Source: an uncultured Chloroflexia bacterium (GTDB taxonomy: Bacteria > Chloroflexota > Limnocylindria > Limnocylindrales > CSP1-4). From it: DNA of 64,000 nt. Location: the NCBI GenBank assembly GCA_963749705.1, contig CAVVNQ010000008.1, forward strand, positions 192,001 through 256,000, given 5' to 3'. The position numbers were made by a program, and so were the translations under genes. Positions 50,941 through 64,000 of this stretch are shown here, piece by piece (the stretch's first letter is position 1; the number at the start of each line of letters is the position of its first letter). The notes below the pieces were generated by a model, which searched no databases, was not told the DNA's origin, and saw only the letters and a list, made by a program, of their open reading frames with translations.

Positions 50941-52485
50941 GTGACCCAGACGAGAACCCCCGCAACCCCAGTCATCGATAACGAAGCAGAGCTCGCGGCA
51001 GCGGCCGTCGCGCTCGATCCCGAGCTGCTCGAGCTCGAGGCCGAGGTGCTCGACTCCGAGGTCGTGGCGACCAAGCCCGAAGCTGCGGCCACCAAGCCCG
51101 CCGCGGACGAGGAGGCCGAGCCCGAGCCGGTCGCGGCCGAGGTGCTCGACACCGACGACTCGGTGCGCCTGTACCTGCGCGAGATCGGTCGCGTGCCGCT
51201 GCTCACCGCGGAGGAGGAGGTCATCCTCGCCAAGGGCATGGAGCTCGGCGCGCAGATCGACGCGGAGCCATGGAAGGCGATCCTGGCCATCCACGAATGG
51301 ACGCTGCACGGGACCGAGCCGACGGGCCGCCGCAAGGACCGCCGGTACTTCCTGCCCTTCGAGGCCGAGGCGCACCGCATCGTGCAGGCTGCCCTCAGCT
51401 CGGACGACGCGATGGACCTGCTGGTCACGGCACCGTCCTTCGACCTGCCCGACGCGCTCAAGAAGGCCGAGACGGACTCCCTCAGGGAGCGCCTCGTGCG
51501 CGCCCAGGACCTCCGCTCGGTCTACAACGAGCGCCTCGACCCCGAGTCCTTCCTCGACCTCCTCAACTGGATCGAGGGTGAGCTCGGCCGTCCGAACGTC
51601 GAGCTCCGCGCGAGCGCGGCGCTGCATGCCGTGCGCAACTGGTCTCGCGACGAGGTCGCCTACCCGGCGATCCGCCGCTACCTCGAGGCGGGCCTCGACG
51701 AGGACACCGTCGCCGAGATGGTCCTGACCCTCAAGGCGCTCGCGAAGCAGTCGCGCGACCACCTGACGTCGGCCAACCTGCGGCTGGTCGTGTCGATCGC
51801 CCGCAAGTACATCAACCAGGCCGGCATGGGTCTCCTGGACCTCGTCCAGGAGGGCAACGCGGGCCTGATCCGCGCCGTCGACAAGTTCGAGTACGAGCGC
51901 GGGTTCAAGTTCTCGACGTACGCGACGTGGTGGATCCGCCAGGCCATCCAGCGCGGCCTCGCGGACCAGTCGCGGACGATCCGCATCCCGGTGCACATGG
52001 TCGAGACCATGGGCCGGGTCGCGCGGGTGGTGCGCGAGCTCTCGACCCAGCTGGGCCGCGAGCCCACCAACACCGAGATCGCGGCGGCGCTTCCCGACGA
52101 GACGCCGGCGATGACGCCGACCCGCGTCGAGGAGATCCGCAAGCTCGGGCGCGAGCCCGTGTCGCTCCAGTCGCCGGTCGGCGACGAGGGCGATGCCGAG
52201 CTGGGCGAGCTCATCCCCGACGAGGACGCCGTGTCCCCGCTCGATGTCGTGTCCGACCGGATGCGCCGCGAGCAGATCGAGCACGTGCTCAACAGCCTCG
52301 ACGGCCGCGAGCAGCGCGTCCTCCGCCTCCGCTTCGGCCTCGACGACGGGCACGCCCGGACGCTCGAGGAGGTCGGCCGCGAGTTCGGCCTGACCCGCGA
52401 ACGGATCCGCCAGATCGAGGTCCAGGCGCTGCGCAAGCTGCGCCACCCGTCCCGAAGCCGCAAGCTGCGCGAGTTCGCCGCGTAG
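50941..52485 (+). CDS. RpoD/SigA-like sigma-70 factor
   Basis: [50 protein letters not shown] and TRERIRQIE. Confidence 0.95.
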
Positions 52486-52647
52486 CGACTCCGCGTCGGC
52501 CAACCACATATGGCGTCACCCCGAACCCGCTGCGTCGCACGCCGACGTGGCGGGTTCGCGCGTTGAGGGTGCGGGTCCGCCGTTGGGCGGCGGGGCGTAT
52601 CCCGCAGGCACGCAGACCGGCCGGGTCCGATGCGCCTCCCGCAGAGG

Positions 52648-53244
52648 CTACTCGCGGGCGCGCACTCCGAGCTCCCGCCCGACCCGCATCCAGATCAGGA
52701 CACCTGCGACGAGGAGGGTTGCTCCGACGACGTACCCCGAGTAGTGGAATGACGCGGTCCGACCTGCGGCAACGGCGATGGCGAACGGCCCCAGCCCGGC
52801 GATCACCGCGACCGCGGCATAGATCCGGGTCCGGTGCATCCAGACATAGGGCAGGAAGTGCCCGCCGTTGGTGGCGGCAAACGTGGCCGGGACGAGCAGC
52901 GGTTCGAGGTTGTACACGATGATCGAGGCCGGCAGCGCGATGGCCTGGACCATCGCCACCTGGACCACGAGGGGCGTGAAGGGGTTCGTGCTCGTCAGTC
53001 GTCGATAACCGAGGGCGTTCTCGAGCAGGAGCGAGCCGGGGAATGCCACGACTCCCTGGAACAGGAACACGAGCGCCGCGCCGGTGACCGACAGCACCTG
53101 GCTGAGGATCGCGGCCGCGATCCAGGTCAGCCCGTGGACGATGAGGAAGGCAAAGCCACCGCGGTTCGAGAATCGGATCTCGTCGCGCGCCTCATCGAGG
53201 GTCCGCGGACTCCCGCTGGGCAGTCGGTTCGTCGCTGCGGTCAT
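52648..53244 (-). CDS. Multi-pass membrane hypothetical protein
   Basis: About six TM segments and a GGHFLPY motif. GGAGG RBS. Confidence 0.75.
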   Translation of the reverse strand: MTAATNRLPSGSPRTLDEARDEIRFSNRGGFAFLIVHGLTWIAAAILSQVLSVTGAALVFLFQGVVAFPGSLLLENALGYRRLTSTNPFTPLVVQVAMVQAIALPASIIVYNLEPLLVPATFAATNGGHFLPYVWMHRTRIYAAVAVIAGLGPFAIAVAAGRTASFHYSGYVVGATLLVAGVLIWMRVGRELGVRARE

Positions 53245-53427
53245 CGCATCCTCCCATCCTCGCGGGCTCCCCGGCGCGGCCCACGGCGGTTGCAGGGATG
53301 GTGTCCGGGGCGGCCCTGTCCTGCTGGGTCAGGACCAACGCGCAGCGGCCGACACGGCGAACGACCATGCGACGCCGGGCCATCCTACCAATCGGCCGCC
53401 AACGCGACCACGCGAACGCCGCGTGGT

Positions 53428-55515
53428 CTACCCGGACACGGCGTCCGCGCAGTCGTAGACCGAGCTCGCGGAGCCGTCGATCGTGACCGCGGTGCAAGCG
53501 GACGCGACCCAGCTCGAGATGGTCGACGATGAGGCACCGCCGGGCGCTCCCCCACCACCGCCGACGGCGACGAACCGAAGCTCGCCGTTGGCGATCAGGG
53601 ACTGGAGCTGCTCCAGCGTCGGGGCGTCGTCGGCGCCATTGAAGCCGCCCATCGCCATCACCGGCCTGCCGGTTTCGATCTCGACCTGACCGGCCCAGGT
53701 CCCGCCCGAGACCGCGACGATCCAGGTGGCGGACCCCTGATTGGCGACCAGGTAGTCGATGACGCCGCTGCTCAGCCCGACGACCGGTCCTGCGGCCGCA
53801 CCGCCCGTACCGCCCGCTCCGCCCGCTCCGAAGGCGATCCCACCCTGCGCATCCCGGACGGAACCCGGCGGCGTGCCCCGCGTTCCGTCGATTGCCGCCG
53901 GCGGCTGGCCGGGCGTCCCGTTCGCGAGCGGTCCGCCGAGGCCGGCCGGCGCTCCGGCGCCGCCGAGACCCCGATCGGTGCCGGCGGCCTGCGGTCCCGC
54001 CGAAGGATCGCCACCGGAATAGGCGGTGGCCATCGTGTCGACGGCGTAGGCGGCCGGCCCGGCGAGGAGGACCGCCACGCCCAGGACGGCTGCCGCCAGC
54101 TGGACGCGTGCGCGGCCGGATCGAGGCCGCAGTGCGAGCGCCGGCAGCACGATCGCCGCGACGGCAACCACCGCCAGCCCGAGCCCCGGTGCGAACGACG
54201 GGGTCCGGTCGAGCAGCATCCACGCGATGACGGCCGACCCGAGGATCGACAGGCCGAGCACGGCGCCGGCCCAGGCGAACCGCGCGCGAGCGCGCCACAG
54301 CTCGACCACGCCGCCGCCCACGAGGGCCCCGACCGCCGGCGCCATGACCACGACGTAGTAGCTGTGGATGATCCCGGACATGAAGCTGAACACGACGATG
54401 TGGACGAGCAGCCACAGGCCCCACATCAGCCACGCGGCGCGAGCCAGGTCGGTTCGCGGGCCGCGGATCCGCGCGATGAGCCCGCTCACCAGTCCCACCA
54501 GGGACAGCGGCAGGAGCCACGCGATCTGCCCGCCGAGCTCGGCGTTGAACAGCCGCAGGATGCCGGGCGTGCCCGAGAACCCGCCACCAGCCGCTCCGGC
54601 TCCACCACCCGGCGGACCGCCTCCCCCGGCGACGGCCGCGCCGCCACCACCCTGGCCGAAGATCCGGCCCAGGCCGTCGTAGCCGAGCACCAGGTCGAGC
54701 GCGGAGTTGTCGGTGCTGCCGCCGATGTAGGGCCGCGATGCCGCGGGGATCAGCTCGATCGCGGCCACCCACCAGGCGCTGCTCGCGATCACGGCCACGG
54801 CCGCGACGGTGAGGCCGGCGACCCGACGGCGGATCGATCCCGGAGCCGCGATCGCCCACGTGATCGCGAACGCCGGCAGGACGAGGTAGCCCTGGAGCAG
54901 CTTTGTCTCGAACGCGAGCCCGATCAGGACGCCGGCCAGCGCGACCCACCGCAGCCGGTCGGTCTCGAGCGCCCGGATGAACGCGTATGCGGCGCCCACG
55001 AACAGGAGCGTCAGCAGCGCGTCCGGGTTGTTGTAGCGGAAGATCAGGACCGCGGCCGGGGTGAGCGCCATCACCAGCCCCGCGATGATCGAGGCGGCCG
55101 CGCCGAACGTGCGGCGAACGGTGGCCATCAGCAGGGCCACGGTCGCGACGCCCATCAGCGCCTCGGGCAGCAGGATCGATGCCGGGCTCAGCCCGAACAG
55201 CCGCACGGACAAGCCCATGACCATCGTCGCCAGCGGCGGCTTGTCAAGGGTGATGAAGTTGGCGGGGTCGATGGAGCCGAAGAACCACGCCGACCAGCTC
55301 TGCGAGGCCGCCCACGCGGCCCCCGAGTAGTAGACGTTGGCGTAGCCGCTCACGGTCAGGTTGACGACGTACAGCAGCGTCGCGGCCAGCAGCACGCCGG
55401 CGGTCGCCGGGAGCACCCACGCGGCATCCCGGGAACGGCTGCGTGCGATGTCGCGAACGGTGGCCAGGCGGCCTGCCGGGCGGGGTTCGACCCTGGGCGG
55501 TGCGATCGAGGTCAT
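53428..55515 (-). CDS. GT-C fold (ArnT/PMT-like, GT39/83) glycosyltransferase
   Basis: ANVYYS, TLDKPPL, RYNNPD, PYIGGS, GYDGLGR, HSYY and PVMAMGGF, with Gly-rich loops. Confidence 0.9.
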   Translation of the reverse strand: MTSIAPPRVEPRPAGRLATVRDIARSRSRDAAWVLPATAGVLLAATLLYVVNLTVSGYANVYYSGAAWAASQSWSAWFFGSIDPANFITLDKPPLATMVMGLSVRLFGLSPASILLPEALMGVATVALLMATVRRTFGAAASIIAGLVMALTPAAVLIFRYNNPDALLTLLFVGAAYAFIRALETDRLRWVALAGVLIGLAFETKLLQGYLVLPAFAITWAIAAPGSIRRRVAGLTVAAVAVIASSAWWVAAIELIPAASRPYIGGSTDNSALDLVLGYDGLGRIFGQGGGGAAVAGGGGPPGGGAGAAGGGFSGTPGILRLFNAELGGQIAWLLPLSLVGLVSGLIARIRGPRTDLARAAWLMWGLWLLVHIVVFSFMSGIIHSYYVVVMAPAVGALVGGGVVELWRARARFAWAGAVLGLSILGSAVIAWMLLDRTPSFAPGLGLAVVAVAAIVLPALALRPRSGRARVQLAAAVLGVAVLLAGPAAYAVDTMATAYSGGDPSAGPQAAGTDRGLGGAGAPAGLGGPLANGTPGQPPAAIDGTRGTPPGSVRDAQGGIAFGAGGAGGTGGAAAGPVVGLSSGVIDYLVANQGSATWIVAVSGGTWAGQVEIETGRPVMAMGGFNGADDAPTLEQLQSLIANGELRFVAVGGGGGAPGGASSSTISSWVASACTAVTIDGSASSVYDCADAVSG

Positions 55516-55538
55516 GGCCGGCTCCGGGATGGCGGTCG

Positions 55539-55862
55539 TCAGGAGCCGCCGGTGGACACGTGCCCCGATCCGCGCGTACGGGTCGGCGCCTGGAAGCCGT
55601 TGTTGCCCTGGAACGGCTGGAACCCGTCGTTCTGCTGGTCGTCGAAGGGCACCACCTCCTGCCGGGGCGCGACGGTCGTGCCCCGGCCACTGGTGGAGCT
55701 CCCGGCCGGCTGCTGATCCGAGGCGCCGCGGTACCCGCCGGCGGCGGCGAAGCCGAACCCCACGGTGGCGGCGATCCCGGTGACGGCGATCCCGGTGGTG
55801 AGCGTCCGGAGTCGGGTCAGCGCGTCGTACCGACGGCGCGCGGAATGTCGAAAGGCGTCCAT
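55539..55862 (-). CDS. Small anchored protein ending in HVSTGGS (copy 2)
   Basis: Arg-rich N-terminus, one hydrophobic helix, a flexible linker and C-terminal GHVSTGGS*. Confidence 0.75.
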   Translation of the reverse strand: MDAFRHSARRRYDALTRLRTLTTGIAVTGIAATVGFGFAAAGGYRGASDQQPAGSSTSGRGTTVAPRQEVVPFDDQQNDGFQPFQGNNGFQAPTRTRGSGHVSTGGS

Positions 55863-55885
55863 GCCCCCAAGTCTCGGGCGTGGAT

Positions 55886-55903
55886 CCTTTCGGTCCGGTT
55901 ACG
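55886..55903 (-). promoter_or_regulatory. OmpR-type box, copy A
   Basis: CGTAACCGGACCGAAAGG on the minus strand, 23 nt upstream of ATG 55862. Identical to 60109-60126. Confidence 0.65.
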
Positions 55904-55992
55904 GTCGTCGCCGGACGAGGCGCTCCCGCAGCCTGTCGGGACGGCGCAGGCGAAGGGTTGCACGGGATGCACGGGATGATCCCGCTTCGCCA

Positions 55993-57234
55993 TCAGCCGA
56001 ACGAGGCGCGGCTCCAGCTCACGGCGAACCGCGCGCCGCCGGTGGGTGACGACTCGACCGACCACCGACCGCCGGTCGCCCGCACGATCGCATCGCCGAT
56101 CGCCAGGCCCAGGCCCGCGCCGTCGGCACCCGTCGCGGTCGCCAGCGCACGATGGAACCGGTCGAACACCCGCTGGCGATCCTCGGGCGGGATGCCGGGC
56201 CCCGAATCATCGACCGTGAGCATCGCCCGCGCGCCATCGAGCGCGACCGTGACATCGACGCGACCGCCCTCCGGCGCGTACTTGCACGCATTGTCGAGGA
56301 GCACGCCGACGAGGCGGTCGATCAGGTCGGGCGCGGCCGCGATGACGGCGCCTGCCGGCGGCACGTGGACGCCCAGCTCGAGCCGGCGCGCCTCGGCCAC
56401 CGCGGCGAAGCGGTCCGTGGCCTGGGTTGCGATCACGCCCAGGTCGACGGGCTCCGAGGCCGGCGTCGCGTGCTCGGCATCGAACCTGGCCAGCCACAGC
56501 ATGTCCTCGAGCAGCCGGCGCATCCGCTTGGACTCGCGGTCCACGCGCGTGAACGCCGTCTGGTACCAGGCCGCGTCACGTGGCTGTGTCAGCGCGAGCG
56601 ACGTGTGCGCCTCGATCACCGACAGCGGCGTCCGGAGCTCGTGCGAGGCGTCGGCGGTGAACTCCAGCTGGCGCCGGCGGGCCGCCTCGATCGGCTCGGC
56701 GACGCGGCGCCCGATGAGCACCGCGCCCAGGAACACGGCGGCGAACAGCAGCGGCGCGATCAGCAGCTCGCCCAGGATGATCGTCCGCTGGGCATCGGAC
56801 ACGAGGTCCATCGCCTGCGCCACCACCACGTAGTCGTCGCCGATCGAGGCACCGGCGACGCGGACCTGGGTCCCGTCGATCGTCGCCGTGGTCGGGCCCA
56901 CGACCGCTCGGAGGTCCGTCGGGAGGTCGGGCGTCGAGGCGCTGGCGAGCACCGTCCCGTTCGATTCGACGGTCCAGACGAGCAGCGGCACCCCGAGCGG
57001 GCGCCCGGGGTCGCGGCCCGGATCGTACGGCGAGTCCGGCGGGCGGTTGGCGTCCGGAGGCAGGCGCCGGAAGGACTCCGTGAGCCGCTGGTCGATCTGG
57101 GATGTCAGGTCGCGCGTGGCGAACGCGACCACGCCGGCCGCGACGACCAGGTACGCGACGGCAACGATCGCGGTGGCGCTGAGCGCGACCCGGATCGACT
57201 GACGGCGGACTGCCGGCACGTGCGACATCGTCAT
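55993..57234 (-). CDS. Sensor histidine kinase
   Basis: Two TM segments, ADASHELRTPL, DNACKY, DSGPGI and GAGLGL. Confidence 0.95.
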   Translation of the reverse strand: MTMSHVPAVRRQSIRVALSATAIVAVAYLVVAAGVVAFATRDLTSQIDQRLTESFRRLPPDANRPPDSPYDPGRDPGRPLGVPLLVWTVESNGTVLASASTPDLPTDLRAVVGPTTATIDGTQVRVAGASIGDDYVVVAQAMDLVSDAQRTIILGELLIAPLLFAAVFLGAVLIGRRVAEPIEAARRRQLEFTADASHELRTPLSVIEAHTSLALTQPRDAAWYQTAFTRVDRESKRMRRLLEDMLWLARFDAEHATPASEPVDLGVIATQATDRFAAVAEARRLELGVHVPPAGAVIAAAPDLIDRLVGVLLDNACKYAPEGGRVDVTVALDGARAMLTVDDSGPGIPPEDRQRVFDRFHRALATATGADGAGLGLAIGDAIVRATGGRWSVESSPTGGARFAVSWSRASFG

Positions 57235-57899
57235 CCGGCGTCCAGCCGGTACCCCGCCCCGCGCACGGTCACGATTCGCAGCCCCGCGTCCGACAGCTTG
57301 GCGCGCAGCCGGCTCATCTGGACGTCGATCGCGTTGGACCCGAGCGGCTCGGTCTCGTCGGCCCAGGCGTGCTCGGCGATCGCCTTGCGATCGACGACGG
57401 CGGGCGCACGCCGCAGCAGGAGCTCGAGGATCCGGTATTCGGTGCTGGTCAGGGCTCGCTCCCGGCCATCCACGGTCACGACGCGGGTGACGGGATCGAG
57501 GCTCAGGCGGCCGGCCCCGAGGACGGGTGCATCGACCCCGCGCGGCCGTCGCTGGAGGGCGCGGACGCGCGCCAGCAGCTCCCCGAAGTCGAAGGGCTTG
57601 ACGAGGTAGTCGTCGGCGCCGGTGTCGAGGCCACGGATCCGGTCTGCCGGCGTGTCCCGGGCGGTGAGCATGATGATCGCGGTCGGGCGCTGCTTCCGCC
57701 GGGCCCAGGCAACGACATCGATGCCCTCGGCACCGGGCATCCGCCAGTCGACGACCGCGACGTCGTAGTCGTACCAGCCCAGGTAGTCGATCGCGTCATC
57801 GCCGCGTCCGACCGCGTCCACGTGGTATCCGGCGTCGGACAGGCCGAGCACGAGCACATCGCGCAGCCCCTCGTCGTCCTCCGCCACCAGCACGCGCAC
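57231..57899 (-). CDS. OmpR/PhoB-family response regulator
   Basis: VAEDD, VDWRMP, LTARD, GADDYLVKPF and TVRGAGY. Confidence 0.95.
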   Translation of the reverse strand: MRVLVAEDDEGLRDVLVLGLSDAGYHVDAVGRGDDAIDYLGWYDYDVAVVDWRMPGAEGIDVVAWARRKQRPTAIIMLTARDTPADRIRGLDTGADDYLVKPFDFGELLARVRALQRRPRGVDAPVLGAGRLSLDPVTRVVTVDGRERALTSTEYRILELLLRRAPAVVDRKAIAEHAWADETEPLGSNAIDVQMSRLRAKLSDAGLRIVTVRGAGYRLDAG

Positions 57900-57924
57900 C
57901 CGATCACCCTCCCAGCCTTCGTGC

Positions 57925-58194
57925 CTACCCGCCGCCTGCCGGGCCTCGGCCGGCGCGTGCAATGGTGGCACGGGCGGGGGCGACGAGACGGAGCGCCAGG
58001 ACGGGGCAGGTATCGACCGCCATCCGGGCATGCTCCATGAGGCTGGGTGGAACCGGGCCCGGACGCAGGATCGGATAGCCCCATTCGTCGAGCGCGATCA
58101 TCTCCGGGAGCAGCTCGGCACACGAGCCGTAGCCGTCGCACGCGATCCGGTCGACGGCGAGGGCGGGTTGGTCGGACGCGGCGAGCGTCGTCAC
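57925..58194 (-). CDS. Single-cluster ferredoxin
   Basis: CDGYGSC...CPVLAL. GTGA overlap with the upstream gene. Confidence 0.85.
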   Translation of the reverse strand: MTTLAASDQPALAVDRIACDGYGSCAELLPEMIALDEWGYPILRPGPVPPSLMEHARMAVDTCPVLALRLVAPARATIARAGRGPAGGG

Positions 58195-59432
58195 GCCGCC
58201 CTCCACGCCTGTCGACCGGCCACGCAGCCACGGCCGCGCTGGTGCGACGTGAAGTCCGTCTCGAACACGCGCAGCGCGCTCCGGAGCAGCCCGACCGCAC
58301 CGTCCGGGTGACGGCACGCGCCTCGCCCGGCGAGGGTGTCGGTCCAGCCGGCAAGCCGGCGCAGGTCATCGCCGTGGGGGCGTCCGGTGGCCAGCCGCGC
58401 CGTCGCGTCGGCGATCGCCCGGAGGCCGAACACGCACGGTCCGCACTGGGCCGCGCTCTCGCCCGCCATGTAGTCGAGGATCCGGGCTGACGCGCGCACC
58501 CCGCAATCGTCGTCGCCGAGGAACCACACGATGCCGCAGCCGAACGAGGCGCCGGTCGCGCGAAGCTCCGGCGGGTCGAGCGGCATCTGCCACGCGTCGC
58601 TGCCCGCCACCCAGCCGCCGAAGTACCCGCCCTGCAGGACCGGACCGCCGGTCAGCTGAAAGCCGGCGCGTCGGGCGACCTCCGCGAGCGTGGTCCCGAT
58701 CTCGATCTCGGTGACGCCGGGCAGCGGTGCGCCGCCGATCGTCACCAGCGCCGTGCCCCGGGTCCGGCCGCGACCGGCCTCGCGATACCAGCCGTCGCCG
58801 AACCGGGCGATCAGCGCGGCGTGGGCCAGGCTCTCGACGTTCTGGACGAGCGTCGGCAGCCCGTCGATCCCGCGCTCGAACGGTCGCGGGGGCGTCGTGG
58901 TGGGTCGGGCGTCGCCCTCGTTGATGAAGTGGACGGCCGCCGACTCCTCGCCCGAGATGTAGGTCGGGGGCGCCGCGACGAGCTCGATCGGGAGGCGTGA
59001 GCGGATCCGCGAGACGTCCGCCATGCGCTCGTCGAGCGCGCGGCGCAGCGCCTTGCGCGCCGCGACGTGCTCCGACCCGACGTACAGCACGACCCGGTCG
59101 GCCCCGACGACGCGGGCCGCGAGCTCGGCGCCATCGAGCACGAGGTGCGGCCGGGTGCTCATCAGGAGACGATCCTTGGAGCTCAGCGGCTCACCCTCGG
59201 CGCCGTTGGCCAGGACGACCGCGCCGCCGGTGGCTCGATCGCGCACCGAGCCCCACTTGCGCGCCACCGGGAAGCCGGCACCGCCGCGACCGAGCAGGCC
59301 GGCCGCATCGAGCATGGCCACGGCATCGAGCCCGTCCTCGGGTCCCGGCAGGCGGCCGAGGCGCAGCGTGTGGTCCGCGAGCGACTCGGGACCGGCGGCC
59401 AGCGGCGGCCCGGCGAGCAGTCGGGCGGTCAT
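58191..59432 (-). CDS. Stand-alone NuoF-like NADH-binding FMN/Fe-S protein
   Basis: GLLGRGGAGFP, NGAEGEP...KD, YISGEESA, QNVESLA, ESAAQCGPC..G and GACRHPDG. Confidence 0.9.
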   Translation of the reverse strand: MTARLLAGPPLAAGPESLADHTLRLGRLPGPEDGLDAVAMLDAAGLLGRGGAGFPVARKWGSVRDRATGGAVVLANGAEGEPLSSKDRLLMSTRPHLVLDGAELAARVVGADRVVLYVGSEHVAARKALRRALDERMADVSRIRSRLPIELVAAPPTYISGEESAAVHFINEGDARPTTTPPRPFERGIDGLPTLVQNVESLAHAALIARFGDGWYREAGRGRTRGTALVTIGGAPLPGVTEIEIGTTLAEVARRAGFQLTGGPVLQGGYFGGWVAGSDAWQMPLDPPELRATGASFGCGIVWFLGDDDCGVRASARILDYMAGESAAQCGPCVFGLRAIADATARLATGRPHGDDLRRLAGWTDTLAGRGACRHPDGAVGLLRSALRVFETDFTSHQRGRGCVAGRQAWRAA

Positions 59433-60022
59433 CGGGCGCTCCGGTTCGAGGTCGACTGCCACGACGAGCTCGCGACCACGTCGGCCAGGCGGGCGCGGGG
59501 CGGCTCGATGGCCACCCGCCAGGCGAGGCTGCCCGCGACCGCCGCGAGGCAGGCCAGGTCGATCGCCAGCATCCACGGCGCCGATGCGTCGCTGCCCGCG
59601 GTGAACCCGTGGAGCAGGGCGAGCGGCCACATCGCGTAGCTGGTCCAGTGGATCGCCCGCCACGTCCCCTGGCCGATGTGCTTGCGCAGCAGGCTGGTGA
59701 CGATCAGGGCGACGAACAGGTACATCGCGATGACCCCGAGGGCCACCGGGACCGGCCGGTACGTCGACGCGAGCGGGACCAGCGCCGCACCGATGCCGAG
59801 GCTCGTGAACGGGTCGAACACCGCCGTGAGGATGTGAACCGCGAGGAACACGATCGACAGCAGCGACACCCGCCGGTGCATCTCGTAGTTGAAGAACCGC
59901 GGCCAGCCGGCGGCCTGGAACCGGACGACGGTCACGAGGCCCAGGCAGGTCGCCGCCGTGAACATCAGCAGCGACACGGCGCCGGCGCCTCGCGTCGCGA
60001 ACCACAGGACCTGGTCGAACAT
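59429..60022 (-). CDS. Ferric-reductase-like (MsrQ-like) transmembrane cytochrome b
   Basis: About five TM segments with His pairs HRR...VH and WRAIH...LH. Confidence 0.85.
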   Translation of the reverse strand: MFDQVLWFATRGAGAVSLLMFTAATCLGLVTVVRFQAAGWPRFFNYEMHRRVSLLSIVFLAVHILTAVFDPFTSLGIGAALVPLASTYRPVPVALGVIAMYLFVALIVTSLLRKHIGQGTWRAIHWTSYAMWPLALLHGFTAGSDASAPWMLAIDLACLAAVAGSLAWRVAIEPPRARLADVVASSSWQSTSNRSAR

Positions 60023-60108
60023 CTGGCTATCGCTCCGGGGAGGGGCGCGGGACCGGGGGGGTCGGTCCCGCGCCGGGAAAGATCACGCGAACAGTGTCCC
60101 GGCCGGCA

Positions 60109-60126
60109 CCTTTCGGTCCGGTTACG
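60109..60126 (-). promoter_or_regulatory. OmpR-type box, copy B
   Basis: CGTAACCGGACCGAAAGG overlapping the apbE TAA stop. Confidence 0.65.
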
Positions 60127-61201
60127 ACGCGGGCGAGCCCTCACGATCCGCCGAAATCGTCGTCGCCTCGCCGTCCGTGGCGGTTGGCGCCGGCACGCCA
60201 TCCAGATCCGGTGCCGGCCAGCCGCCGAGGCGGACCACCCGCCCATCGTTGCCGACCAGCCGTGCCGGGAGGCCGGCGGCGTCCAGCCATCCCGGCGCGT
60301 CATGGCCCAGCACGATCGCGGCGGTCGAAGCGCCATTGGCCAGCTCGCACGTCGTCGCGACCACGGTGGCGGTCCGCCACGGGGTGACCGCGGCGAGGCC
60401 CGTCCGTGGGTCGACGATGTGGTGGACGGTCACGCCATCTGCCGACGTCCAGTGCCGGACCGTCGTGCTCGAGGTGGCGATGGCGCCGCCCTGGATCGCG
60501 ACGACCTCACCGTCGCCGTCCGACGGGGCACGGCTGTCCTCGGCCACGAGGACCCGCCAGCCACTTTCGGGTGCCCTGCCCGCGGCCGTCATATCGCCGC
60601 CGAGGCTGACCAGGACGCCGGCATCGGGACCGACAACCTGCAGCGCGGCGTCTGCAGCCAGGTCGGCGGCCAGGCCCTTGCCCGTGGCACCGAGATCGAG
60701 CTCCACGCCGCCGGGCACGCGCAGCTCCCTGGACCGCCGATCGAACGAGATCGCGGACCAGCCCGGGACGGGCGCGACGCGCAGCTCGAGCGAGCGGCTG
60801 GAGCCGGCGAGCTGGTCGAAGTCGAGGTCGTAGCCGATGACCCGCATCGCCCGGCCGACCGTGGGGTCGACCGCGCCGTTCGAGCGGCGGGCGGCCTCGA
60901 TCGCGCCGGCCAGCGCGCGCGCCAGCAGCGGGCTCACCCGGATCGTGCGGCCGGCGGCGGCGTTTGCCGCCATCAGCTCACTGTCAGCGCGGAACCGGCT
61001 GTACGCGCGATCGACGTCGCCCAGCACCTGCTCGACCGCCACCTGCGCCGCGGCGAGGTCGCCGTCGAGCACCAGCAGGCGGACGCCCGTGCCCAGCGCC
61101 CGCCAGTCTGCCTGTTCGATCACGCCCGGGTCGCGTCGGTCGGCCGAATGGATCGTCGCGCCGCCGCTCACGAGGTGGCGCGTGGGCCCCGCCGCGCTCA
61201 T
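60122..61201 (-). CDS. apbE: FAD:protein FMN transferase
   Basis: ALGT, SRFRADSEL, VDPTVG, DLGATGKG, SLGGD, ATS and HHIVDPRTG. Confidence 0.92.
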   Translation of the reverse strand: MSAAGPTRHLVSGGATIHSADRRDPGVIEQADWRALGTGVRLLVLDGDLAAAQVAVEQVLGDVDRAYSRFRADSELMAANAAAGRTIRVSPLLARALAGAIEAARRSNGAVDPTVGRAMRVIGYDLDFDQLAGSSRSLELRVAPVPGWSAISFDRRSRELRVPGGVELDLGATGKGLAADLAADAALQVVGPDAGVLVSLGGDMTAAGRAPESGWRVLVAEDSRAPSDGDGEVVAIQGGAIATSSTTVRHWTSADGVTVHHIVDPRTGLAAVTPWRTATVVATTCELANGASTAAIVLGHDAPGWLDAAGLPARLVGNDGRVVRLGGWPAPDLDGVPAPTATDGEATTISADREGSPAS

Positions 61202-61503
61202 GAGCCGCCCGTGGAGACGTGCGCCTGGCCGGTGGTGCTGGCCACTGTCGGTGCCGCGGTCGCTGCGGCGGTCGATGTCGAGCTCGATGTCCCGCTCGTG
61301 GCCGGCGTCGCACCGTCGACGGTCTCCGTGGTGACGGCGGCCGTGAGGGCTGACTGGGTCAGCGCGCCGTTGTACGTGAGCGCCGACGCCCAGCCGAGCC
61401 CGCCGGTCGCGGCGACACCGAGGATGGCGGTCACGATGGTCATCCTGCGGAGGCGGCGGTTGGCGCGGGACCGAGCCTCGGCGCGCTGGTCATTCGTGTT
61501 CAT
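61198..61503 (-). CDS. Small anchored Ser/Thr-rich protein ending in HVSTGGS (copy 1)
   Basis: NRRLRRMT, a hydrophobic helix, an S/T/A linker and AHVSTGGS*. ATGA overlap with apbE. Confidence 0.8.
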   Translation of the reverse strand: MNTNDQRAEARSRANRRLRRMTIVTAILGVAATGGLGWASALTYNGALTQSALTAAVTTETVDGATPATSGTSSSTSTAAATAAPTVASTTGQAHVSTGGS

Positions 61504-61525
61504 GGCCCGATGTTGCCCGGACCCA

Positions 61526-61543
61526 CCTTTCAACTCCGTGACG
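61526..61543 (-). promoter_or_regulatory. OmpR-type box, copy C
   Basis: CGTCACGGAGTTGAAAGG, 22 nt upstream of ATG 61503. Confidence 0.6.
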
Positions 61544-61942
61544 GCTCGTGGCAACTCGTGGCCGTGGGGACGGTAACCGGGCCCCGAATCGCGCTCCGCC
61601 CCTGTTCCGATTCGCGCTCTGCCCCTGTTCCGCGGGTCCGAATCGTGCCCCGCCCCTGACAGTTGCCCGCCCTGCGAGCACTGGCCAGCGAGCCGGGTCC
61701 GACAGCGCCACGAGCTCGCCCAACTGCCCCGTTTCGCCTGCCACGTGTCCAACCGATGGGCACGTGGCGTGCCTTCAGCCGCGTCGGCAGCGCCGAGGCC
61801 GTCCCCGACCAGGGGCGCGGTGGCGAACGCCCGCATGACGGGCAAATGGCATGGGCGCGCGGGGCGGTTGGCCGGTTGGCCGGTTGGCCGCCGAGGTGCG
61901 CCGTGTCGTTCGTGTTCATGCCCCGGTCATCGGGGCGGAAAT

Positions 61943-61958
61943 CCTTCGATCCGGTGAC
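61943..61958 (-). promoter_or_regulatory. OmpR-type box, copy D
   Basis: GTCACCGGATCGAAGG, 23 nt upstream of ATG 61919. Confidence 0.5.
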
Positions 61959-62890
61959 TACTCGTCGGGCTTCACGTCGTCCAGCGAATCGGCGGTCTCG
62001 ACGGTTCCGTCGACACCCGGCGGTGCGACTGGCGGGGGTGCGCCTCCGCCGCCGGCCGCCGGGTCGGGGCTCCCGCCGGCCGGCGTCGTGTCCGGGCTGC
62101 CCGTCGCCGGCGTCGTGTCCGCATCCCCGGGATCCTCGTCGCGAGAGGCGTCGGGCACGGTCGGCACGACCTCCTGAGGTGTCCTGACCGGCGCTCGCGC
62201 CGCGAGGGCGGCGGCCGCCCCCGTTCCGAGGTTCTTCGAGCCGAAGTAGAAGCCTGCCACCGCAACGACGAGCGTGCTCACCGTGGTCAGCAGCTGGAGC
62301 GCGAAGTCATGGCCCTCGGCGGACATCCGCTGGCGGATCCGGACGGTGTACAGGGGTTCGGCCGGCGTGGCACCCGGTCCGGTCGCCGGCATCAGGTCCT
62401 GCTCGAGCACGTTGCCACCGCCGGCGCGGATCGAATCGATCTGGGTCTGGGTGAGCCCTTCGGACGTGTACACGTCCCCCGACGTCGAGGACTGGAGCAC
62501 CACCACCCCGATGATCGCGAAGATCAGGATGAGGACCATCGCGATGAGCGCCCGGATCGACCCGGGCGGCATCCCGAGCGCCTCCCCCGGCGTCGGCATC
62601 CCGAGGGCCGTCATGACCACCGTTCCCGTGTACAGGATGAGCGTGACGGTCACGAACCCTGCGATGAGCAGGACCACGCTGTCCAGCTTGATCGCCCACG
62701 CTGCGACGTTGGGCAGGGCGGCGAACATGAGCGCCAGGACGATGAACGCCCCGAACACGAGCACCGCCGCCCCCAGGGTCCCAAGCCGGCCCCACGGCGA
62801 GGCCCGGTCACCGGTTGGCGCGTCGCCCGATCCTGGATTCGCTCTGCCGCCCTGTCCCTCGTCGTCCTCGGTCGTCCGATCCTGCGTCAT
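61958..62890 (-). CDS. Membrane hypothetical protein
   Basis: Four TM segments, ALGMPPGSIRA and AVAGFYFGS, with an acidic Pro-rich tail. Confidence 0.75.
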   Translation of the reverse strand: MTQDRTTEDDEGQGGRANPGSGDAPTGDRASPWGRLGTLGAAVLVFGAFIVLALMFAALPNVAAWAIKLDSVVLLIAGFVTVTLILYTGTVVMTALGMPTPGEALGMPPGSIRALIAMVLILIFAIIGVVVLQSSTSGDVYTSEGLTQTQIDSIRAGGGNVLEQDLMPATGPGATPAEPLYTVRIRQRMSAEGHDFALQLLTTVSTLVVAVAGFYFGSKNLGTGAAAALAARAPVRTPQEVVPTVPDASRDEDPGDADTTPATGSPDTTPAGGSPDPAAGGGGAPPPVAPPGVDGTVETADSLDDVKPDE

Positions 62891-63068
62891 GGCTCCCACC
62901 CCACCTGCTCCGTGGCCGCACTCTACGACCGCGCCGATGTCGTGCCTAGCCCCAAACGCGTGGGCCCGGGCGCCGAGCCTTGACCCTGGGGAGCGCGGTG
63001 CTAGGCTCCGGGGAACCACCGCCGAAGGCCGCCCGGCCGGGCGCTGGGCGCCCGGGGAGGGGCGACGA

Positions 63069-64000
63069 ATGCACGGTCAGTGGCAGCGGATCGGCGGCCG
63101 CGCGACGTACCTTCCGCCGTTCGTGAACGAGCGGTTCGACGGCCCACCGTACTGGGCCTGCACGTTCACCTCGCTGCTCAACGGCGTCAACGTCGGCTGG
63201 CTGGGCGAGAAGCCGGCCACCCAGGCCGAGGTCCGCGCACTGGCCCGCGCATCGGGCGACGTCGACCTCCGCGGCGGGAGCCGGTCGAGCCACATGATCC
63301 GGGCGATGAAGGTCCGCTACGGGCGATCGATGCGGATCGAGCGCCGGACGCCCGCCGAGGCCATCGACCGCCTCGGGCGAGGATGGGCGATGGTCGGGGC
63401 CGTGACCTACGGCGGGCTGCCCAGGCGATATCGGCGGTGGAGCCCGCAATTCACCGGTGGTCACCGCATCGTGCTCATCGGGTGGCAGAACGGCAACTCG
63501 CGCCTGCTTGATCCGCTGGCCAAGCACGATGCGACCTACGGCGGCGAGTGGATCCGGTGGTCGGATTTCGAGCCCGCTTGGTGGGCCGCCGAGCAGCTGT
63601 GGTTCCGCGAGGGCATGTTCCTGGCGCAGCCACGGTTCGGCACCCTGGTCCCACTAGCGGCACCGCGATCGTGGCGCGTCGCGGCGTCGACCACCGTGGA
63701 CTTCCTGTCGGCGGATCAGCCCGGAGTCGTCGCCCGCCGGGTGCGCATCGATACGGCGAGCGAAGCGATGTACGACGCGACCGTCCCGCTGCTGCCCGCG
63801 GATGCGTCCGCCGGCACCGAGCTGACGCTCGTTCGCGTGTCCACGGGCCGGTTCGCCGGGTACCTCGTTGACGGACACGCACCGGGGATCACGGCAACGG
63901 GTCTGGATGTGAGCGATCCGGCCCCGGCACCGAGCGCCGAAAACGCGACGCCCATGGAGGGCAACGCCACGGCGGCCGAGATCCTCAAGGCGCGCCAGGA
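63069..64000 (+). CDS. Papain-fold (C39-like) peptidase domain protein (runs off the window)
   Basis: Hand translation from ATG 63069: PPFVNE...YWACTFTSLL...GGHRIVLIG...LLDPL...GEWI. The frame is open to the window end. Confidence 0.65.
   Translation, partial: MHGQWQRIGGRATYLPPFVNERFDGPPYWACTFTSLLNGVNVGWLGEKPATQAEVRALARASGDVDLRGGSRSSHMIRAMKVRYGRSMRIERRTPAEAIDRLGRGWAMVGAVTYGGLPRRYRRWSPQFTGGHRIVLIGWQNGNSRLLDPLAKHDATYGGEWIRWSDFEPAWWAAEQLWFREGMFLAQPRFGTLVPLAAPRSWRVAASTTVDFLSADQPGVVARRVRIDTASEAMYDATVPLLPADASAGTELTLVRVSTGRFAGYLVDGHAPGITATGLDVSDPAPAPSAENATPMEGNATAAEILKARQ

Follow-up and report, generated by a model that had tools for sequence, protein, structure and literature searches.

Within a 64,000-nucleotide stretch of DNA from an uncultured Chloroflexia bacterium (contig CAVVNQ010000008.1, positions 192,001 to 256,000; hereafter the window), two small genes, which we call micro1 and micro2, encode proteins that end in the same seven residues, HVSTGGS, and lie in one gene cluster with a gene for ApbE, the transferase that moves flavin mononucleotide (FMN) onto proteins. 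Flavinylation by ApbE is a main bacterial route for wiring redox chemistry outside the cytoplasm. The two proteins belong to a family of approximately 100-residue proteins that is so far undescribed and whose tail is, in terms of sequence, a variant of the minimal seven-residue ApbE flavinylation motif. We consider it probable (about 0.7) that micro1 and micro2 are natural, domain-less C-terminal FMN acceptors.

Both open reading frames are present on the minus strand at the positions given by the first-pass annotation of this DNA (Table 1), with the endings ...GSGHVSTGGS in micro1 and ...GQAHVSTGGS in micro2. Their last codons are CAC GTG TCC ACC GGC GGC TCC TGA and CAC GTC TCC ACG GGC GGC TCA TGA, respectively, and three of the seven tag codons differ between them, all synonymously, as had been noted. 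The micro2 start, an ATG at 61503, is backed by 26 homologs of 85–134 residues with a matching MNTND-like start. Endings of the form [ST][ST]GGS are rare: in the window's own 3.6-Mb genome they occur in 3 of 40,951 stop-to-stop open reading frames of at least 40 residues, two of which are micro1 and micro2, 5.6 kb apart in one cluster, the third being an Arg/Ser-rich 65-residue frame on a different contig. This count and the family profile scan described below rule out a chance match or non-coding frames. Family alignments bore out what the first-pass annotation had ascribed to the pair, an N-terminus rich in Arg, one helix and linkers without relation to each other. Its description of the two proteins as otherwise dissimilar did not hold, since BLASTP aligns them at 34% identity (E 6e-9) across the N-terminus, helix and tag; by this comparison they are paralogs with diverged linkers. 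An AlphaFold2 model of micro2 based on a 36-sequence alignment consists of a helix at residues 3–43 followed by no secondary structure (mean predicted local distance difference test score, pLDDT, 55). Pfam and NCBIfam searches with micro1, micro2, a cytochrome-adjacent type of the family and a Frankia member matched no family at all, folded acceptor domains (FMN_bind PF04205, DUF2271, DUF3570 or others) included, and our search found no longer or fused relatives, which is a weak indication in the same direction.

The minimal motif modified by ApbE has seven residues, D-x-x-[S/T]-G-A-[S/T], of which the last receives the flavin (PMC12052999), and HVSTGGS aligns to it residue for residue except for His in place of Asp and Gly in place of Ala. 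In the 36 copies of the family that adjoin apbE, the Ser that forms the last residue and the Gly two positions before it (S101 and G99 in micro2) are invariant, as are R11 and R17, while the linkers are unalignable. Further detail comes from 54 copies, a set selected for ending in GGS. Three positions before the presumptive acceptor these have Ser or Thr in 49 copies, Gly in four and Val in one. At the first tag position, where the motif has Asp, they have H in 30, Q in 12, L in 4, V in 3, M in 3, R in 1 and D in 1, and the His of the window's tag is thus one of several residues found there. The position before the acceptor, Ala in the motif, is occupied by Gly and sometimes Ser; Ala appears in just 3 of the best 150 representatives of the family (HATSGASG, HASTGASG and AQVSTGAS), so that a few members carry the canonical TGAS or SGAS through an A/G swap at this deviant position. 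The last three positions of the same GGS-ending copies draw on all four Gly codons and on four TCN codons for Ser, a sign of synonymous turnover while the amino acids are constrained. With regard to tolerance of the enzyme, replacing Asp by Ala in the motif has a minor effect, while G-to-A and A-to-V changes each roughly halve flavinylation, and the motif performs best as an N- or C-terminal tag (PMC12052999). It also functions with a signal-less ApbE in the cytoplasm of E. coli (PMC9400968). No protein of the cluster has a conserved [ST]G[AGS][ST] motif other than the microprotein tag. The one further occurrence in a redox protein of the cluster is a TGAS at residue 293 of the NuoF-like protein; we considered this protein as an ApbE substrate and rejected it, as the motif is kept in only 1 of 45 orthologs.

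A word-indexed search retrieved 26 relatives of 85–134 residues, all ending in the tag and all unnamed or "hypothetical" apart from one that is plainly misnamed. A profile scan of 1.84 billion proteins extended the family to 429 representative clusters at E ≤ 1e-3, with 144 at E ≤ 1e-10. Among the best 150 representatives, [ST]G[GSA][ST] stands 0–3 residues from the C-terminus in 132 and H-x-x-[ST]-G-[GSA]-S is present in 102; an exact GGS ending is found in 81, and many others have one to three extra residues. The proposal that these proteins are domain-less acceptors at a free C-terminus was partly supported, by the enrichment beside apbE, the sole conserved motif and the lack of a domain or fold, but a strictly free C-terminus is not required. 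The shared architecture is approximately 20 Arg-rich cytoplasmic residues, a membrane helix rich in small residues (G/A/T), a disordered linker of 40–70 residues free in sequence (46% Ser+Thr on average) and the tail [H/Q]-[V/A]-[S/T]-[S/T]-G-G-S. The ESM Atlas holds only unnamed clusters of the family, in Chloroflexota and Actinomycetota, and an exact-sequence cluster look-up gave no names for its members; the collection behind it does not contain the two Frankia sequences as delimited here. A locus search seeded with micro2 returned one locus, with a homolog 69% identical. We also viewed 18 unusually long or partly matched hits, including most of the tagless ones among the best 150; several end in Arg/Pro-rich stretches, as expected from frame-changing gene calls. 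Two apparent fusions of the microprotein to ApbE (P0037 and P0081) were discarded, as they look like frame-shifted gene calls running into ApbE sequence.

In order to place the family in its genomic context, we used 78 family open reading frames in 67 loci, made up of 65 fetched regions (hits with E below approximately 1e-6), the window and one earlier locus; G296, the weaker hits G087, G319 and G364 and a third hit in G367 fall outside this set. Directly upstream of apbE lie 48 of the 78 copies, with a gap, measured from the tblastn hit, of -66 to +57 nt, and in the window the TGA stop of micro2 shares bases with the apbE ATG (ATGA). Another 16 copies directly follow the histidine kinase gene of the cluster and five directly precede its cytochrome gene, the remaining nine comprising two at contig ends, one past the ferredoxin gene, a tandem second copy, a degraded frame and four for which no gene of the cluster was found within 7 kb. 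Overall, apbE occurs within 7 kb in the fetched stretch for 69 copies and the cytochrome gene in the locus for 70, showing the linkage to apbE that is expected of ApbE substrates. The two-copy arrangement of the window, with 5.5–5.7 kb between copies, recurs in five further genomes of the genus. In a sample of 401 genomes of the class, the family is present in 63 (including the unpublished G296), and ApbE is present in 62 of these 63 versus 183 of the 338 genomes without the family, a comparison that includes unpublished genomes and whose strength is inflated by kinship among genomes.

The copies away from apbE have features of their own. The cytochrome-adjacent type (loci L016, L024, L026, extended as L030–L032, L063, L066 and L074) combines Q/N/G-rich linkers with tails like SHVTSGGS or HAVSGGS, and its gene immediately precedes an operon for a cytochrome, a NuoF-like protein and a ferredoxin; the fetched stretch shows no apbE. 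A separate locus with a microprotein, ApbE and the cytochrome is also present in four of the six genomes with this type (G021, G026, G230 and G424), which would imply flavinylation in trans if our model holds. As for the copies without a cluster, the gene upstream on the same strand at L112 (also L115 and L118) encodes a NosD/beta-helix protein, and the copy at L089 is followed by a gene for a 1075-residue DUF11 surface protein and preceded by a divergent Flavodoxin_5 gene.

The linkage was also put to a blind test. We searched 185,579 species genomes for DNA encoding only G-x-[A/G]-H-[V/A]-x-x-G-G-S-stop and obtained 79 hits, of which 65 lie inside an ApbE / MsrQ-like cytochrome / NuoF-like cluster. 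For 39 hits apbE begins at most 200 nt downstream, for eight the cytochrome gene begins next, 14 follow the kinase gene and for four some other gene of the cluster stands within 2 kb. The 14 hits left without any cluster gene comprise one at the end of a Frankia contig and 13 frames of 8–102 residues, which come from unrelated phyla in 12 cases and from a Thermomicrobiales (Chloroflexota) metagenome-assembled genome (MAG) in one; these 13 are an internal gauge of chance matches. Among the cluster hits, the Chloroflexota are represented by MAGs with the labels Chloroflexia, Chloroflexi or Candidatus Limnocylindrales; the remainder belong to Actinomycetota and include MAGs of Streptosporangiaceae, one of Nakamurella and four Frankia strains in culture. 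The architecture is unchanged in the Actinomycetota members, and wherever the N-terminus of their ApbE is readable it likewise has no signal. Enrichment of the tag beside apbE, the check that the first-pass annotation had put forward, was thus found both among the family copies and among the blind hits, with 26 of the latter elsewhere in the cluster.

The neighbouring genes point to the role that the microprotein may fill. The cluster ApbE matches PDB 1vrm_A at E 5e-26, retains the HH-x-x-DP-x-TG and GGD motifs and looks catalytically intact on these grounds. The membrane cytochrome beside it scores 31.1 bits against PF01794 (E 2.7e-7; cut-off 28) and adjoins apbE, which makes it MsrQ-like in the operational sense (Méheust et al. 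2021) of a PF01794 protein in a flavinylation-associated cluster. All of 36 sequences keep its H49, H63, H125 and H138, and its AlphaFold2 model has six predicted helices (pLDDT 87); a fold search gave no match at E ≤ 0.001, with SpNOX, NOX5, DUOX and STEAP as the top rows. MsrQ-like clusters normally include an FMN_bind gene (PMC8238504). In the class sample, however, only one genome (G330) has FMN_bind at most 7 kb away from a family copy, and FMN_bind was not found in the window's genome, which is 88% complete. Because MsrQ-like clusters usually carry FMN_bind and, with that one exception, none stands beside a family copy, the microprotein is, as judged from gene content, what takes the slot of the FMN_bind gene. 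Canonical FMN_bind proteins of the same class consist of an anchor, an S/T/G linker and a domain with D-x-I-SGAT-YTS, and in one fetched example the gene lies between those for the cytochrome and ApbE.

Several observations weigh against the proposal that the tail is an ApbE acceptor. The tag departs from the motif at two conserved positions, the "strictly conserved" Asp and the Ala (PMC12052999), and the effect of an A-to-G change is not reported in the literature covered. A flavin with no pocket would be solvent-exposed and its redox control unclear. With regard to linkage, five of the 78 copies (8 of the 79 pattern hits) adjoin the cytochrome gene with no apbE in the fetched stretch, and the four solitary copies noted above have no cluster gene of any kind in reach. 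Moreover, 112 of the 401 genomes (a tally that includes the unpublished G421 and G159) have FMN_bind elsewhere, many of those with the family among them, which speaks against a simple replacement at the genome level. A further difficulty concerns topology. Even from the earliest possible start, a hydrophobic N-terminus, signal or anchor is excluded in all 54 cluster ApbEs, a point absent from the first-pass annotation, and the other two ApbEs of the window's genome likewise have none. In 36 microprotein sequences the flank N-terminal to the helix has a mean net charge of +3.9 (minimum +2) and the C-terminal flank one of -1.1; because positive charge precedes the helix and negative charge follows it, the predicted topology is N-in/C-out. 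With the tail predicted outside and ApbE signal-less, either export takes place after flavinylation of the tail or the topology is mispredicted. Although the genome encodes TatC, a twin-arginine is found in only 16 of 36 copies, and twin-arginine translocation (Tat) is therefore not the general route. We infer that cytoplasmic flavinylation followed by export of the unfolded tail is probably the simplest reconciliation.

A mechanism can be outlined on this basis. The cognate ApbE, whose start codon overlaps the stop of micro2, would take FMN from flavin adenine dinucleotide (FAD) and attach it to the terminal Ser through the hydroxyl of that residue; this would take place in the cytoplasm and precede translocation of the unfolded tail. 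The flavin, carried on a flexible arm, would then be located on the outer side of the di-heme MsrQ-like cytochrome, which would be fed from the cytoplasm by the NuoF-like module, oxidizing reduced nicotinamide adenine dinucleotide (NADH), together with the ferredoxin. Electrons would pass from NADH to FMN and Fe-S centers, through two hemes across the membrane to the tethered FMN outside, and from there to an extracytoplasmic acceptor, and micro1, as a second copy, may extend the relay. In its most developed form, a signal-less ApbE would load FMN on the last residue of a disordered tail, the tail would be threaded across the membrane and a swinging-arm flavin would shuttle electrons from the outer heme to extracellular acceptors, the absence of a domain being the adaptation that enables loading before export, and the same would apply to at least two further unnamed small-protein families beside the other two ApbEs of the genome. 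We offer this full version tentatively, as an idea with the odds somewhat against it.

The small proteins beside those two ApbEs are as follows. The gene for the second ApbE is preceded by one for an unnamed 195-residue protein (G000:C3:258287-258871, minus strand; locus L004 8288-8872) with an anchor helix, a coiled-coil-like region and the tail ...TSTTTGASGVP, and another ferric-reductase-like membrane protein flanks it. Orthologs occur in 20 of 41 relatives. Of 14 ortholog tails, eight have a canonical [ST]GAS 1–4 residues from the C-terminus, five another x-A-S-G and one TGGS, an Ala/Gly interchange like that of the microprotein family, and from these endings the protein looks like a second family of C-terminal acceptors. 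The third ApbE gene is preceded by one for a 124-residue anchored protein (G000:C8:317394-317765, minus strand; locus L005 9395-9766), whose stop overlaps the apbE ATG. Thirteen ortholog tails of this protein end in ...T-[R/K]-Q-S-G-x-[P/R], a non-canonical motif that may be a third acceptor type. Its neighborhood contains a two-component system, a ferredoxin and a ferredoxin-reductase-like frame, the last named by eye.

Three other explanations of the tail deserve consideration. The microprotein could serve the MsrQ-like cytochrome as a small subunit with a part in structure or assembly, its tail an unflavinylated docking or ligand peptide in which the His, Ser or carboxylate binds heme, a metal or a partner, with ApbE modifying something else or only processing FAD. 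The cytochrome is indeed about as consistent a neighbor as apbE, to the point of standing next to the five copies that lack an apbE, the small-residue helix suits packing, the invariant R11 and R17 are on the cytoplasmic side, and a signal-less ApbE is ill-suited to an extracytoplasmic substrate. The tail itself argues otherwise: the putative ligand His is often Q, R, M, L or V, whereas Gly-Gly-Ser stays, and the Gly interchanges with Ala to give canonical SGAS or TGAS. Together with the overlap of the micro2 stop and the apbE start, and with the absence of a conserved flavinylation-like motif from the other cluster proteins, this makes us regard a purely structural subunit as unlikely.

The glycosyltransferase of the cluster (PMT_2/YkcB type) invites a different explanation, in which the tail or linker is an O-glycosylation recognition site and the link to ApbE reflects shared regulation only. 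The first-pass annotation had suggested that the S/T-rich linker could be a substrate of the adjacent enzyme. In the window, however, the copy that adjoins the glycosyltransferase gene is micro1, whose linker is Q/N/F/G-rich and not S/T-rich, and the S/T-rich micro2 adjoins apbE instead. The high Ser+Thr content of the linkers across the family would suit such an enzyme, whose gene starts 23 nt past micro1 and comes after the copy behind the kinase gene in 8 of 16 loci and in 13 of 14 pattern hits, yet most copies are coupled to apbE and not to it, and several clusters with an ApbE-adjacent copy show no glycosyltransferase in the fetched stretch. Furthermore, the invariant residues are the terminal G-G-S that match the ApbE motif, while the S/T-rich stretch is unconstrained. 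Linker glycosylation could coexist with flavinylation of the tag, and as a replacement for it we think glycosylation very improbable. We attach a similarly slight probability to the view that the hydrophobic segment is a cleaved Sec or Tat signal peptide and the product a secreted peptide of 55–60 residues in which the tag would act in sorting, maturation or signalling. The helix is indeed followed by an A-x-A-like stretch (WASA, WAAA or FAAA), the Actinomycetota members are signal-peptide-like in appearance, and the RR that precedes the helix in some copies accords with the TatC of the genome; but this twin-arginine is not conserved, nor is any sortase-like or peptide-maturation gene in the cluster. 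Cleavage would in any case be compatible with flavinylation, which makes this explanation more a variant of the acceptor model than a true rival to it.

The open reading frame list and a Pfam scan place all of these genes in a single tightly packed cluster on the minus strand at 52.6–61.5 kb, which also includes a gene for a DUF7010 protein and in which several neighboring genes overlap by 4 nt (Table 1). The NuoF-like protein matches TIGR01959 under the family cut-off. As listed, the ferredoxin frame overlaps the NuoF-like gene and its real start is probably further downstream; that of the response regulator is probably near residue 44 of the listed frame. Pfam has no family for micro1, micro2 or a 353-residue protein encoded upstream, an NCBIfam scan of micro1 and micro2 gave noise and no family, and Rfam has no match within 52000–64000.

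Table 1. Features of the window on which the analysis draws
Feature	Positions	Strand	Description
micro2	61198..61503	-	101 aa: Arg-rich N-terminus, one helix, S/T/A-rich disordered linker, tail HVSTGGS
micro2 tag, seven codons (H95-S101)	61201..61221	-	proposed FMN acceptor, S101
ApbE-family FAD:protein FMN transferase	60122..61201	-	359 aa; Pfam PF02424, E 2e-49
MsrQ-like / ferric-reductase-domain membrane cytochrome	59429..60022	-	197 aa, six helices; PF01794
NuoF-like cytoplasmic NADH-binding FMN / 4Fe-4S protein	58191..59432	-	PF01512 (1.7e-33), PF10589 (1.2e-15)
Single-cluster 4Fe-4S ferredoxin	57925..58317	-	PF13459, 8.4e-13
OmpR-type response regulator	57231..58031	-	PF00072 and PF00486
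Sensor histidine kinase	55993..57234	-	HisKA and HATPase_c
micro1	55539..55862	-	107-aa micro2 paralog, Q/N/F/G-rich linker, tail HVSTGGS; between kinase and glycosyltransferase
micro1 tag, seven codons (HVSTGGS)	55542..55562	-	
GT-C glycosyltransferase (PMT_2 with YkcB_C)	53428..55515	-	starts 23 nt past micro1
Three 23-nt direct repeats (CCGAATCGCGCTCCGCCCCTGTT-like, spacing 23 and 31 nt)	61584..61660	.	80-160 nt upstream of micro2

The direct repeats upstream of micro2 are possible binding sites of the OmpR-type regulator of the cluster. The micro2 start region at 61489–61509, including the MNTND codons, recurs as a 21-nt copy (90% identical) 416 nt upstream at 61905–61925, just past the stop of the 353-residue membrane protein gene, and this copy may be the remnant of a duplication or of an insertion upstream of micro2. 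The glycosyltransferase has long Gly/Ala/Pro-rich low-complexity inserts between its membrane and C-terminal domains. In one database protein, P0114, the N-terminus of the microprotein family is joined to a YkcB_C-like C-terminus, probably through an assembly or deletion artefact. Sequencing runs matching the stretch each hold small shares of it. Contigs of the metatranscriptome run X9, approximately 95% identical to the window, span 55604–55807 and 61137–61481 and cover most of micro1 and, on a single contig, micro2 together with the apbE start. The contigs hint weakly at transcription of these genes in a close relative; the library may contain DNA and is not counted as expression evidence.

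If the tail is indeed flavinylated, a natural seven-residue terminal acceptor would account for some of the remaining "orphan" apbE genes, and surveys that rely on Pfam domains and signal-peptide filters would prove to overlook a whole class of substrates. The tag would also be a natural counterpart of the engineered Flavin-tag with a differing sequence (GGS for GAT and no Asp), which may widen tag design, and the question would arise whether a flavinylated peptide can be exported. The cultured Frankia strains that carry the family, Frankia torreyi CpI1 among them, make a bench test feasible.

These possibilities are best judged against known flavinylation systems. Substrates are unidentified for 670 genomes with orphan apbE (Méheust et al., PMC8238504). 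For the natural ApbE substrates in the literature covered, the flavin is always in or against a folded domain, and the open full-text literature gave no description of a natural domain-less substrate, supplementary tables and subscription journals being outside that coverage. The nearest relatives by gene content are MsrQ-like flavinylation clusters with a NuoF-like protein (PF10589), of which 31 were counted (Méheust et al. 2021, eLife, PMC8238504) and which, being MsrQ-like, belong to a type described chiefly from Actinobacteria, a group that also hosts the microprotein family. These clusters and the window share apbE, a PF01794 di-heme membrane protein and a cytoplasmic donor on the NAD(P)H side; they differ in that the window ApbE has no export signal, and clusters of this kind may have been filtered out of the survey. 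DUF2271 and DUF3570 (Méheust et al. 2021) were likewise found from an orphan apbE with a conserved neighbor carrying an [S/T]GA[S/T]-like motif, but they are folded domains of approximately 135 and 420 residues with internal motifs and were validated by co-expression, whereas the microproteins are putative substrates. Experimental validation exists for FMN_red proteins whose flavinylation sites are on an unstructured extension of the C-terminus (Huang et al. 2024, mSystems, PMC11334425), and as in the microproteins the motif is on a disordered C-terminal tail and not within an FMN_bind fold. Those proteins are from Firmicutes and have the canonical motif, and their tail folds back on the non-covalent flavin pocket of a globular domain, a domain that the microproteins do not have. 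A near parallel to the tail itself is the engineered Flavin-tag (Tong et al. 2021, via PMC12052999 and PMC9400968), in which a short terminal peptide with a seven-residue minimum suffices for ApbE and flavinylation by a signal-less ApbE is cytoplasmic (PMC9400968). The Flavin-tag is artificial and has the canonical D-x-x-S-G-A-T, whereas the tag of the window is natural, has H or Q for D and G for A, and places the acceptor Ser last.

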